64,000 nt of DNA from Escherichia coli (GTDB lineage Bacteria > Pseudomonadota > Gammaproteobacteria > Enterobacterales > Enterobacteriaceae), in NCBI RefSeq assembly GCF_016903815.1, contig NZ_CP069973.1; one strand, given 5' to 3'. The position numbers were made by a program, and so were the translations under genes. The notes beneath the pieces were generated by a model, which was not told the DNA's origin, ran no database searches, and was given only the letters and a program-made list of their open reading frames with translations. Of this stretch, positions 4,427 to 63,717 are shown in pieces. Positions within the stretch are counted from its first letter, which is position 1. Every line of letters begins with the position of its first letter.

Positions 4427-5700
4427 GCCTGCTCTCCTTTCGCTGCGCCGTTTTTCAGCTTCAGTTGCGGGCGCGTCATGGGCAGCAAGCCCTGCGGACG
4501 CCAGATCATCATCAGCACCATCAAACCACCGAGCATTAACATGCTGTATTCGTTGAAATCACGCATCAACTCGCGCGATACCACCAGCAGAACAGCCGCC
4601 AGAATCACTGCAAATTGCGAGCCCATACCGCCGAGCACCACTATCGCCAGTACAAAGGCTGATTCAGCAAAGGTGAAGGATTCCGGGCTGACAAAGCCCT
4701 GACGCGCAGCAAACAGCGTTCCGGCAAAACCGGCAAACGCAGCGCTGATGGTAAAGGCAGTCAGCTTGATACGACGCGGGCTTAAGCCCAGCGAACGACA
4801 AGCGATTTCATCTTCACGCAACGCTTCCCACGCACGCCCCAGCGGCATCCGCAGCAGGCGGTTAATGACAAACAGGCTTAACACCACTAGCAGCAACGCC
4901 ACCAGGTACAGGAAGATAACGCGATCGGAGGGATCGTATTTCAGGCCAAAGAAATTACTGAACGTGTCCCAGCCGCCTTCACGGGCGGTACGGCTGAACT
5001 CGAGTCCGAAGAGCGTCGGTTTCGGGATCTGACTGATACCGTTCGGTCCGCCGGTAATTTCGGTGTTATTGAGCAGCAATATGCGCACAATTTCGCCGAA
5101 ACCGAGGGTAACGATCGCCAGATAGTCACCGCGCAGACGCAACACCGGGAAGCCGAGCAGGAAGCCCGCCGCCGCCGCCATCAACCCGGCAATCGGCAGA
5201 CAGGTCCAGAAGCCCAGACCGTAATAGTGATTGAGCAGCGCAAAAGTGTAAGCGCCGATGGCGTAAAAGCCGCCGTATCCCAGCACCAGCAGACCAGAAA
5301 GACCTACCACCACGTTCAGCCCGAGACCGAGAATAATGTAGATCATGGTCAGGGTGGCGATATCCACCGTCCCACGTGAAACCATAAACGGCCACGCCAC
5401 CGCAAGCACCAGCAGCGCCACGAGAAACAGCTTTTGCTTCACCGTGGAGCCATCAATCGCTGGCAGAATAAACTTCGGCCCGGAAACGCTTTTTAGCCCT
5501 TTCTGGAAAGCCGGTCGCAAAAGCTGGAAGAAAAAGACCACCGCCGTGCCGATAAACACCCATTCCCAACGGACGTCTGAAGCGCTATCGACCACCAGTT
5601 TGGTGCCATCCAGCTCGAGTTGCACGCCCATAAAGACGCCCGCCAGCACAAAGAACATCACAGCAGAGAGCAGCGCCATTGCAATATGCATCGGTTTCAT
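4423..5700 (-). CDS. livM: branched-chain amino acid ABC transporter permease LivM
   Basis: 425-aa track ORF, membrane protein, 4-nt overlap with livG and livH. Confidence 0.95.
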
Positions 5701-61131: not shown

Positions 61132-62484
61132 ATGACTAAACACTATGATTACATCGCCATCGGCGGCGGCAGCGGCGGTATCGCCTCCATCAACCGCGCG
61201 GCTATGTACGGTCAGAAATGCGCGCTGATTGAAGCCAAAGAACTGGGCGGCACCTGCGTGAACGTCGGCTGCGTACCGAAGAAAGTGATGTGGCACGCGG
61301 CGCAAATCCGTGAAGCGATCCACATGTACGGTCCGGATTATGGTTTCGATACCACTATAAATAAATTCAACTGGGAAACGTTGATCGCCAGCCGTACCGC
61401 CTATATCGACCGTATTCATACTTCCTATGAAAACGTGCTCGGTAAAAATAACGTTGATGTAATCAAAGGCTTTGCCCGCTTCGTTGATGCCAAAACGCTG
61501 GAGGTAAACGGCGAAACCATCACGGCCGATCATATTCTGATCGCCACCGGCGGTCGTCCGAGCCACCCGGATATTCCAGGCGTGGAATACGGTATTGATT
61601 CTGATGGCTTCTTCGCCCTTCCTGCTTTGCCAGAGCGCGTGGCGGTTGTTGGCGCGGGTTACATCGCCGTTGAGCTGGCGGGCGTGATTAACGGCCTCGG
61701 CGCGAAAACGCATCTGTTTGTGCGTAAACATGCGCCGCTGCGCAGCTTCGACCCGATGATCTCTGAAACGCTGGTCGAAGTGATGAACGCCGAAGGCCCG
61801 CAGTTGCACACCAACGCCATCCCGAAAGCAGTAGTGAAAAATGCTGATGGTAGCCTGACGCTGGAGCTGGAAGATGGGCGCAGTGAAACGGTGGATTGCC
61901 TGATTTGGGCGATTGGTCGCGAGCCTGCCAATGACAACATCAACCTGGAAGCCGCTGGCGTTAAAACTAACGAAAAAGGCTATATCGTCGTCGATAAATA
62001 TCAAAATACCAACGTTGAAGGTATTTACGCGGTGGGCGATAACACGGGTGCAGTGGAACTGACACCGGTAGCAGTTGCAGCGGGTCGCCGTCTCTCTGAA
62101 CGCCTGTTTAATAACAAGCCGGATGAGCATCTCGATTACAGCAACATTCCGACCGTGGTCTTCAGCCATCCGCCGATTGGGACTGTTGGTTTAACGGAAC
62201 CGCAGGCGCGCGAGCAGTACGGCGACGATCAGGTGAAAGTGTATAAATCCTCTTTCACCGCGATGTATACCGCCGTCACCACTCACCGCCAGCCGTGCCG
62301 CATGAAACTGGTATGCGTTGGACCGGAAGAGAAGATTGTCGGAATTCACGGCATTGGTTTTGGTATGGATGAAATGTTGCAGGGCTTCGCGGTGGCGCTG
62401 AAGATGGGGGCGACCAAAAAAGACTTCGACAATACCGTCGCCATTCACCCGACGGCGGCAGAAGAGTTCGTGACCATGCGTTAA
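61132..62484 (+). CDS. gor: glutathione reductase
   Basis: 450-aa track ORF; GGGSGG FAD motif and CVNVGC redox-active disulfide. Confidence 0.97.
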
Positions 62485-62490
62485 ATGTTA

Positions 62491-62521
62491 AAGGGCAAAG
62501 AGTGGTGTGCTCTTTGCCCTT
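62491..62521. terminator. hairpin between convergent gor and dinQ
   Basis: Perfect 12-bp stem aagggcaaagag-tggtgtg-ctctttgccctt. Confidence 0.7.
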
Positions 62522-62537
62522 AGCTACGTTTCCGCTA

Positions 62538-62621
62538 TCAGTTCAGAAGCTGAAGCAGGAAGCGGATCAGTTCCAGCAGCGCAATTAACGCCCCAAGAAC
62601 GATGATTGCTTTATCAATCAC
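62538..62621 (-). CDS. dinQ: DinQ small hydrophobic toxic peptide (27 aa, GTG start)
   Basis: Minus-strand translation (V/M)IDKAIIVLGALIALLELIRFLLQLLN read from sequence; below the 60-aa track cutoff. Confidence 0.8.
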   Translation of the reverse strand: MIDKAIIVLGALIALLELIRFLLQLLN

Positions 62622-62814
62622 CCGTTTTCTCCATGCTATGGAGTGAGAATGCATCCGCTTACTCATCCACTGCCTGTCACGGCGCATGTCTCATTGTTAG
62701 ATAAGAACTCTCTCACTCCGGCCAGAGCATCAGTTAACGGCACCACCCGTACTTCTGACCAGGACTTTGAAAGCGTTTATGCGCATTACCAGAGTGAAAA
62801 TGCCTCAGAGCTAA

Positions 62815-62830
62815 CTGGATAATCATACAG
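62815..62830 (-). promoter_or_regulatory. putative LexA box upstream of dinQ
   Basis: Minus strand tactgtatgattatccagtt fits CTG-N10-CAG consensus. Confidence 0.5.
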
Positions 62831-62892
62831 TACATGCAGGTTATAAAACCAGCACGTCCTTGCAATAGTTTCAGTATGGTATTAGCATTGAT

Positions 62893-62978
62893 GCGTTAGA
62901 TGATGGCATTCTCACTCCAACCAGAGCCACCAACTCAGGGCTGGAAAGTAAAAAACCGACGCGAAGTCGGTTTTTTTA
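62893..62978 (+). ncRNA. agrA: agrA-like small RNA with intrinsic terminator
   Basis: TTGCAA -35 / tatggt -10 upstream; body gttagatgatggcattctcactccaaccagagcc...; terminator aaaaaccgacgcgaagtcggttttttt. Confidence 0.55.
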
Positions 62979-63127
62979 CGTCCGGATTCGGACAAGGCTT
63001 GGTACGGCAGCGACCCGATGAAAGTATATAAATCCTCTTTCACCAACATGTATAGCAAACTGTCCCTTCTCCAGCTGAAGAAATCGCTAATTCTTGCAAT
63101 GTTAGCCACTGGCTAATAGTATTGAAC

Positions 63128-63211
63128 TGTTAGATAAGAGCTCTCTCACTCCAGCCAGAGCCACCAACTCAGGGCTGGAAAGTAAAAAACCGACGCAAAG
63201 TCGGTTTTTTT
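63128..63211 (+). ncRNA. agrB: agrB-like small RNA antisense to the dinQ mRNA leader
   Basis: Body gttagataagagctctctcactccagccagagcc nearly identical to plus strand 62694-62730 (dinQ leader region); own promoter and terminator. Confidence 0.55.
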
Positions 63212-63363
63212 ACGTCCTGATTCAGACCTCCTTTCAAATGAATAGCCAACTCAAAATTCACACCTATTACCTTCCTCTGCACATACACATTCGTTAAACC
63301 ATATATGTTTTTGACTTATCCGCTTCGAAGAGAGACACTACCTGCAACAATCAGGAGCGCAAT

Positions 63364-63717
63364 ATGTCATTTCTGTTACCCATCCAACTGTTCAAAATTC
63401 TTGCTGATGAAACCCGTCTGGGCATCGTTTTACTGCTCAGCGAGCTGGGAGAATTATGCGTCTGCGATCTCTGTACTGCCCTCGATCAGTCGCAGCCCAA
63501 GATATCCCGCCACCTGGCATTGCTGCGTGAAAGTGGGCTATTGCTGGATCGCAAGCAGGGTAAGTGGGTTCATTACCGCTTATCACCGCATATTCCATCA
63601 TGGGCCGCGAAAATTATTGAGCAGGCCTGGCGATGCGAACAGGAAAAGGTTCAGGTGATTGTCCGCAACCTGGCTCGACAAAATTGTTCCGAAGACAGTA
63701 AGAACATTTGTAGTTAA
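63364..63717 (+). CDS. arsR: arsenical resistance operon repressor ArsR
   Basis: 117-aa track ORF with ELCVCDLC metal-binding motif. Confidence 0.95.
   Translation: MSFLLPIQLFKILADETRLGIVLLLSELGELCVCDLCTALDQSQPKISRHLALLRESGLLLDRKQGKWVHYRLSPHIPSWAAKIIEQAWRCEQEKVQVIVRNLARQNCSEDSKNICS

Follow-up and report, generated by a model that had tools for sequence, protein, structure and literature searches.

Organization of the gor–arsR interval

The window (the whole stretch of DNA analysed, 64,000 nucleotides) ends in the E. coli gor–arsR region, which makes up its final 3 kb. The features placed in this region are listed in Table 1. The intergenic region, 879 nt long, has 100% identity to that of E. 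coli strain 7/2; matches to it were found in 5422 of the 5426 complete E. coli genomes, which carry a dinQ annotation there; in RefSeq the dinQ–arsR interval otherwise carries no annotation except for occasional hypothetical proteins. dinQ, agrA and agrB were described by Weel-Sneve et al. (2013; PMC3567139), who considered the two small RNAs to be 'presumably' tandemly duplicated and agrA to be partly degenerated. In the window, the agrB promoter is in register, at a period of 234 nt, with that of agrA (TTGCAA at 62860-62865). By repeat search, the agr-complementary stretch of the dinQ leader (R0) shares 94% identity with the copy in agrB and 74% with that in agrA. Downstream of the small RNA genes, the tail GGAC(A/C)AGG is common to agrA and Citrobacter (GGACCAGGGC), whereas the agrB tail departs after GAC. 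As judged from these and the outgroup sequences, agrA is the positional orthologue of the single agr gene of Citrobacter, E. albertii and Escherichia sp. E1V33. The segment designated gor' is located between agrA and agrB, as placed with Rfam.

Table 1. Features of the gor–arsR region (positions refer to the window).
Feature	Position	Strand	Basis
gor (glutathione-disulfide reductase), parent gene	61132-62484	+	450-aa ORF; annotated gorA in E. coli genomes, DNA 100% identical
Source segment within gor (CDS nt 1085-1162)	62216-62293	+	Gapless core 62217-62269; extended by multi-allele alignment; BLAST of single pieces gives the same end
dinQ CDS, 27-aa type I toxin	62538-62621	-	Annotated dinQ at the equivalent site in E. 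coli genomes; inside a listed ORF
R0, agr-complementary stretch of the dinQ mRNA leader	62695-62728	-	Repeat family; antisense region according to PMC3567139
LexA-box-like TACTGTATGATTATCCAGTT, dinQ promoter	62813-62832	-	Read from the sequence; LexA operator reported here in PMC3567139
agrA sRNA gene	62896-62979	+	Rfam RF02891 (AgrB), 99.7 bits; BLAST of outgroup loci
agrA downstream tail, to the putative duplication junction (…GGACAAGGCTTG, then GTACGGC)	62980-63000	+	Tail comparison with Citrobacter
gor', decayed copy of gor CDS nt 1085-1162	63001-63075	+	Alignments, repeat search, multi-allele comparison
32-aa ORF opened by the gor' fragment	63018-63116	+	ORF list; judged non-coding
agrB promoter region (-35 TTGCAA, 63094-63099)	63076-63129	+	Sequence; period-234 repeat; promoters described in PMC3567139
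agrB sRNA gene, dinQ antitoxin in K-12	63130-63213	+	Rfam RF02891, 108.1 bits
arsR, right-hand neighbour	63364-63717	+	117-aa ORF; annotated arsR
Variable patch of the antisense repeat in R0 (dinQ leader)	62702-62709		
Variable patch of the antisense repeat in agrA	62901-62908		
Variable patch of the antisense repeat in agrB	63135-63142		

Relationship of the agrA–agrB spacer to gor

The initial annotation had reported a fragment resembling the gor coding sequence (63004-63056) between agrA-like and agrB-like copies; the strings that it quoted were located at 63016-63056 and 62230-62270. Local alignment of 62200-62760 against 62880-63230 gave as its best result a gapless match of 53 nt (62217-62269 against 63002-63054) with 44 of the 53 positions identical (83%) and a score of 61. 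Alignment of 62980-63130 with gor in 500 dinucleotide-preserving shuffles gave a mean score of 19.0 (sd 2.4) and a maximum of 30, which places the observed score 17 sd above the shuffled sequences and the similarity above chance. The identical pair was recovered by repeat search, and a 27-mer of gor, allowing up to 3 mismatches, was found at only two sites in the 64 kb, gor and gor' (none expected from shuffles). Both lie on the + strand and in a common reading frame. With this alignment and the Rfam positions of the agr genes, the reported fragment and its place between them were confirmed.

The extent of gor' was defined by comparison of the alleles of K-12, EC31, CB7453, E69, E. whittamii and SCPM-O-B-8794 (SCPM-8794), each of which retains different gor bases. 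The homology was thereby extended to gor CDS nt 1085-1162 (62216-62293 aligned with 63001-63075), and 71 of the 78 gor positions are kept in at least one allele, a count inflated by the number of alleles compared. In the K-12-type allele, which carries a 4-bp deletion, CACTGCGATATATACCG (gor CACCGCGATGTATACCG) is retained at a site of divergence in the window allele. The best preserved allele is that of E. whittamii, with 61 of 76 positions identical over gor 62216-62293 (BLAST, 87% over 55 nt, E = 4e-13). In E. coli, gor' is an incomplete copy (nt 1085-1162 of 1353) and is unable to encode the parent protein. Searches with a chimeric query of agrA tail and gor revealed no longer gor' in E. 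coli, the homology ending at gor 62293; the same search also joined the real gor to agrA.

A second piece of gor was found in E. albertii, where the single agr is followed by AGTACGGCGGCAATCAGGT, corresponding to gor nt 1085-1103 (17 of 19 identical), and then, past an internal deletion, by GCGGCGAAAGAATTCATGACCATGCGTTAA, corresponding to nt 1324-1353 including the TAA stop codon (26 of 30). Neither score was reached by any of 500 shuffles. The left junction at gor nt 1085 is common to E. coli, E. whittamii, SCPM-8794 and E. albertii, and a scan of metagenomes for junction alleles from outside E. coli returned one contig, with a layout identical to that of E. albertii. From the extent of the E. 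albertii copy and the common junction it follows that one ancestral event copied the last ~269 nt of gor behind an ancestral agr; a segmental duplication with its start inside gor therefore took place.

Low-complexity, A+T-rich sequence might be suspected of matching gor by chance, since the gapless region is short (53 nt) and its core (GTATATAAATCC) is A/T-rich. This reading is, however, refuted by the shuffles and by the 27-mer search, and also by the independent alleles, which restore further gor bases, and by the separate piece found in the correct order in E. albertii; we give it practically no credence. On the combined sequence evidence, gor' is truly paralogous to the 3' portion of gor and lies in direct orientation.

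Distribution and age of gor'

In Citrobacter youngae and Citrobacter sp. On2M the order is gor, dinQ, one agr and yhjA, with no gor'. Escherichia sp. E1V33 likewise has no gor' and carries gor, dinQ and one agrA-like agr followed by slp/dctR/yhiD/hdeB; the sequence 3' of its agr had no megablast match among E. coli genomes. E. albertii has gor, dinQ, one agr, gor' and then P1-like DNA, and E. whittamii and E. coli have gor, dinQ, agrA, gor', agrB and arsR. The single agr genes of E. albertii and E1V33 are 93-96% identical to agrA as against 88-89% to agrB; that of Citrobacter is similar to both (82% and 84%, respectively).

The bases in gor' are of the Escherichia type (TAC; TCC TCT TTC) and differ from the Citrobacter gor gene, and gor' has diverged from gor by 13-28%. 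As inferred from third-position identities, this divergence fits an origin in the Escherichia stem, which would make the event later than the split from Citrobacter and earlier than the branching of E. albertii. Two deeply diverged gor' alleles occur in E. coli, the window type in 810 genomes, including O157:H7, and the K-12 type in at least 3031. About 15% of E. coli genomes are without gor', which was lost by recombination between repeats.

The gene that follows agr depends on the lineage: in Citrobacter it is yhjA (cytochrome c peroxidase), E1V33 has slp-dctR-yhiD-hdeB, and E. coli has arsRBC; this variation (E1V33, locus L017 7457-9837; C. youngae, L009 134-1528) marks the place as a recurrent site of island insertion or deletion. 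In E. albertii NBRC 107761 (L008 4117-5217) and in a metagenomic contig (L024), the stop codon of the gor relic marks the exact start of foreign DNA. The latter is 82-94% identical to E. coli plasmids of the ~90-kb phage-plasmid type (plasmid locus L019) and contains part of a hypothetical gene and a higB/higA toxin-antitoxin pair. A contig from an uncultured bacterium (L012 506-1876, coverage 1.7) carries a gor gene 72% identical to that of E. coli beside a dinQ/agrA region that is 95-99% identical, and is probably a low-coverage assembly artefact.

Tests for a function of gor'

Nothing indicates a function for gor', which is without evident function and is regarded as a non-functional relic. 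The RNA fold of gor' was no better than that of shuffled sequences (z = +0.95), and Rfam gave nothing above threshold; a hit of the AgrB family (RF02891, gathering threshold 40 bits) overlapping gor' at 62947-63037 on the minus strand reached 24.2 bits (E = 0.18). Promoter and terminator consensus scans of gor' found none. A small-protein gene at 63018-63116 was also considered and rejected, its start context, frame, stop and amino acids being unconserved among relatives.

It is nevertheless conceivable, if very improbable, that gor' encodes a protein of 31-32 aa, serves the agrB promoter as an upstream element or regulatory site, or yields an RNA that works on gor as antisense or decoy. Neither main E. 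coli allele interrupts the ORF, and the two share its stop despite the 4-bp deletion and a 1-bp insertion in K-12, the stretch 63071-63093 beside the agrB -35 hardly varies in E. coli, and PGAP calls a hypothetical protein across gor' in some strains. Against a protein stand the lack of a Shine-Dalgarno sequence, a start codon that differs between the two alleles (ATG or GTG), a frame excursion that alters internal residues between the alleles, and the different frame and stop of E. whittamii and early stop of SCPM-8794. A function is likewise disfavoured by the ~25% difference between the two E. coli alleles within the patch, by the longest perfect match to gor, which measures 18 nt in the window allele and is interrupted by a deletion in the K-12 allele, by the lack of a stable fold and by the absence of gor' from roughly 15% of E. 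coli genomes and from E1V33. The conserved sequence next to the -35 (63076-63099) is agrB promoter and is not derived from gor. Indels and frame changes in gor' are lineage-specific; differences from gor at the first, second and third codon positions number 3/5/3 in the window allele, 2/4/6 in SCPM-8794 and 0/1/7 in E. whittamii, all small numbers.

In some strains, RefSeq hypothetical proteins span agrA together with the gor relic, or else the dinQ leader (L002 1016-1231; L003 765-938; L021 1033-1206). These calls hinge on single-base length differences, for instance in the T-run of the agrA terminator, and look like annotation artefacts.

Origin of gor' and agrB

The segment 63001-63075 is probably a non-functional pseudogene relic of the 3' end of gor, left by a tandem duplication of ~785 bp and a subsequent deletion of ~550 bp. 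In the ancestor of E. coli, E. whittamii and E. albertii, the segment starting at gor nt 1085 would have been copied in direct orientation behind a single agr, the original copy reaching the gor stop codon (about 269 nt). The junction would lie at ...GGACAAGGCTT(G/A)(G/A), followed by TACGGC..., possibly with AGT microhomology. The duplicated unit of ~785 bp would have comprised the gor 3' end, its terminator, dinQ with its leader and promoter, and agr. In the distal copy a deletion of ~550 bp would then have removed gor' nt 1163-1353, the terminator and the second dinQ with its leader and promoter, leaving a gor stub of 75 nt directly upstream of the promoter of the second agr (agrB) and a period of 234 nt. 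In E. albertii, the distal dinQ and agrB would have been replaced by P1-like phage-plasmid DNA with higBA after the gor' stop codon.

This is the most economical model. The order gor…agrA is repeated as gor'…agrB, all on the + strand, and the spacings of 785 nt (gor copies) and 234 nt (agr genes) fit one duplication and one deletion; the Citrobacter outgroup has one agr and no gor'. From this order, orientation and spacing, and from parsimony, we infer that dinQ lay within the duplicated unit and that agrB was born in the same event. The initial annotation had attributed the small RNA copies to tandem duplication of a segment spanning the gor 3' end and the dinQ leader. The gor part of that proposal is upheld by gor', by the direct order and by the extent of the E. 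albertii copy; the inclusion of dinQ and its leader, and with it the birth of the second small RNA, is not, as the spacer holds no remnant of them. Comparison of the spacer 63055-63093 with 62485-62859 against shuffles revealed no trace of the terminator, of dinQ or its leader, or of the dinQ promoter. A match of AGCTGAAG in this spacer was reached by 142 of 500 shuffles and was rejected as chance, as was a possible remnant of the dinQ 3' end (repeat 63060-63080 against 62535-62555, 71%; also 142 of 500 shuffles), where K-12-type alleles align better to gor. Homology of gor' at period 234 with the dinQ promoter region (62768-62820) amounted by eye to about 13 of 53 positions, which is at chance level. 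Between the dinQ leader and the agr genes, similarity was limited to the 34-nt antisense repeat, the flanks being dissimilar, and Rfam gave only 22.7 bits (E = 0.4) on the leader (62697-62782). No second dinQ was found beside the locus in E. coli; dinQ occurred at 5423 places in 5422 genomes and was single-copy in 5421 of the 5422.

Several observations count against the duplication and deletion model. E. albertii has gor' and only one agr, with P1-like higBA DNA from the gor' stop codon onward. The agrB tail departs from the agrA tail before the end of the proposed unit, so that a further rearrangement on the ars side is needed. Of the 8 differences that separate the E. whittamii allele from gor, 7 affect the third codon position; this bias would also be expected if the copy had been imported from a diverged gor that was functional, and stems in part from synonymous change in the live gor.

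The main alternative, which we hold to be unlikely, is that of two separate events or of imported DNA. Here gor' would have been made alone, either by single-crossover integration of a gor 3'-dinQ-agr cassette or by homology-facilitated illegitimate recombination that joined donor DNA with its start inside gor to the resident agr, on the downstream side, and agrB would be a later local duplicate of agrA or the agr of a donor, arriving with ars. Such a course would account for gor' beside one agr in E. albertii, for the third-position differences in E. whittamii (0/1/7) and for an agrB that is contiguous with the ars region and has a tail unlike that of agrA and Citrobacter. It also accords with the character of the interval to the right of agr, a hot spot where foreign DNA is represented in E. 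coli by the ars operon and acid-fitness genes, in E1V33 directly by slp, in E. albertii by P1-like higBA DNA and in Citrobacter by none (yhjA), and with the presence of dinQ-like modules on plasmids (PMC5066626). It requires, however, more events than a single tandem duplication with deletions, no donor lineage was found, and the bases in gor' are of the Escherichia and not the Citrobacter type. Several of the third-position differences are explained by variation in the live gor (GAC/GAT and ACC/ACT among Escherichia). The 3' 269 nt of E. coli gor are slightly nearer to Citrobacter gor than is the rest of the gene (88% as against 83-84%), but this donor signal was rejected, 88% against 84% being inside the window-to-window scatter of 78-91%.

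Pairing of the dinQ leader with the agr copies

Within the 33-nt antisense repeat lies an 8-nt patch of which Escherichia has four or more haplotypes. Every dinQ leader compared has a near-perfect partner in one agr copy (loci L001-L003, L008, L010, L014, L016, L017, L020 and L021). Leaders with the patch AAGAACTC (K-12 and the window) or GTGGGCAT (EC31) match agrB at 31-32 of 33 positions. Those with GACGACTA (E. albertii, E. whittamii, SCPM-8794, CB7453 and E69) or AATGGCAT (EC19, 2013C-3252 and E1V33) match agrA at 30-32 of 33 and, where agrB is present, match it at only 27-29 of 33. That the best-pairing agr differs by lineage suggests that the duplicated antitoxins are alternative specificity alleles, and the assignment of agrB as antitoxin and agrA as degenerate may be specific to K-12-like strains.

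A broader proposal is put forward tentatively, as one that we are somewhat inclined to doubt: the whole gor 3'-dinQ-agr module may have been duplicated in the Escherichia stem and the second toxin deleted, leaving an orphan agrB, with the agr copies now serving as alternative specificity alleles. The leader patch fits agrB in strains like K-12 and the window, and agrA in E. albertii, E. whittamii and many strains of E. coli. If this were true, the textbook antitoxin assignment would be lineage-specific, and specificity would be reshuffled by gene conversion among the three repeats.

Recombination between copies of the 34-nt repeat has produced deletion variants in some strains, some of them with a single hybrid agr (agrA × agrB; L004 and L005). 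In B2-type strains (O25b:H4 ST131 and MS1170; L006 and L007) the repeat of the dinQ leader is fused directly to agrB, so that agrA, gor', the agrB promoter and the LexA-box promoter of dinQ are all missing; dinQ is presumably silent in these strains. A perfect 14-nt inverted match was also noted between 62639-62652 (dinQ mRNA, just 5' of the start codon) and 62906-62919 (5' part of agrA), and probably reflects the internal 'sequence 1:2' pairing of the dinQ leader (Kristiansen et al., 2016; PMC5066626).

Relation to known systems and significance

The agrA/agrB pair (PMC3567139; RF02891) is the same locus as that studied here, and gor' is the spacer between the two genes and part of neither small RNA. 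A gor-derived piece, the extent of the unit and its age are not mentioned in PMC3567139 or in Kristiansen et al. (2016; PMC5066626), and a literature term search found no other paper on a gor-derived segment at the agr locus. The relic, its boundaries and its age thus appear to be previously undescribed. A segmental-duplication scar in a type I toxin-antitoxin locus is of a familiar kind, the class being known for tandem repeats. In the tandemly repeated chromosomal type I loci ldr/rdl, ibs/sib and zorO-orzO/zorP-orzP of E. coli (see also PMC2887945 and PMC11264685), whole modules of toxin and antitoxin lie side by side, their number depends on the strain, and some antitoxin copies are orphans. 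Unlike these, the second copy at dinQ retains only the antitoxin, and the evidence for duplication of the module is a scar of a housekeeping gene and not a second toxin gene.

The layout of the locus also resembles a kind of arrangement found beside mobile elements. Truncated duplicates of the 3' end of host genes occur next to integrated elements, as in the icd 3' pseudo-copy beside prophage e14. Like these, gor' is a 5'-truncated 3'-end copy in the same orientation, shortly downstream of the intact gene and with toxin-antitoxin cargo between the two; unlike these, the gor' locus has no apparent integrase or att core, the E. coli copy stops before the end of the gene, and the dinQ-agr cargo exists in Citrobacter without a gor duplicate. 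In a check for an att scar, ORFs and annotation showed no integrase between gor and arsR; direct gor repeats bound dinQ-agrA, and Citrobacter has dinQ-agr without the repeat.

The importance of gor' is evolutionary and modest, that of an ordinary genomic scar that helps to date and delimit a duplication. It accounts for spurious 'hypothetical protein' calls in the intergenic region and, having two deeply diverged alleles in E. coli, gives a neutral marker. It sets the boundary of the duplicated unit on one side, at gor nt 1085, and provides physical evidence for the origin of the second dinQ antitoxin RNA, until now only presumed by the original authors. For type I systems, it would mean that trans-acting antitoxins can persist when a duplicated toxin module decays.
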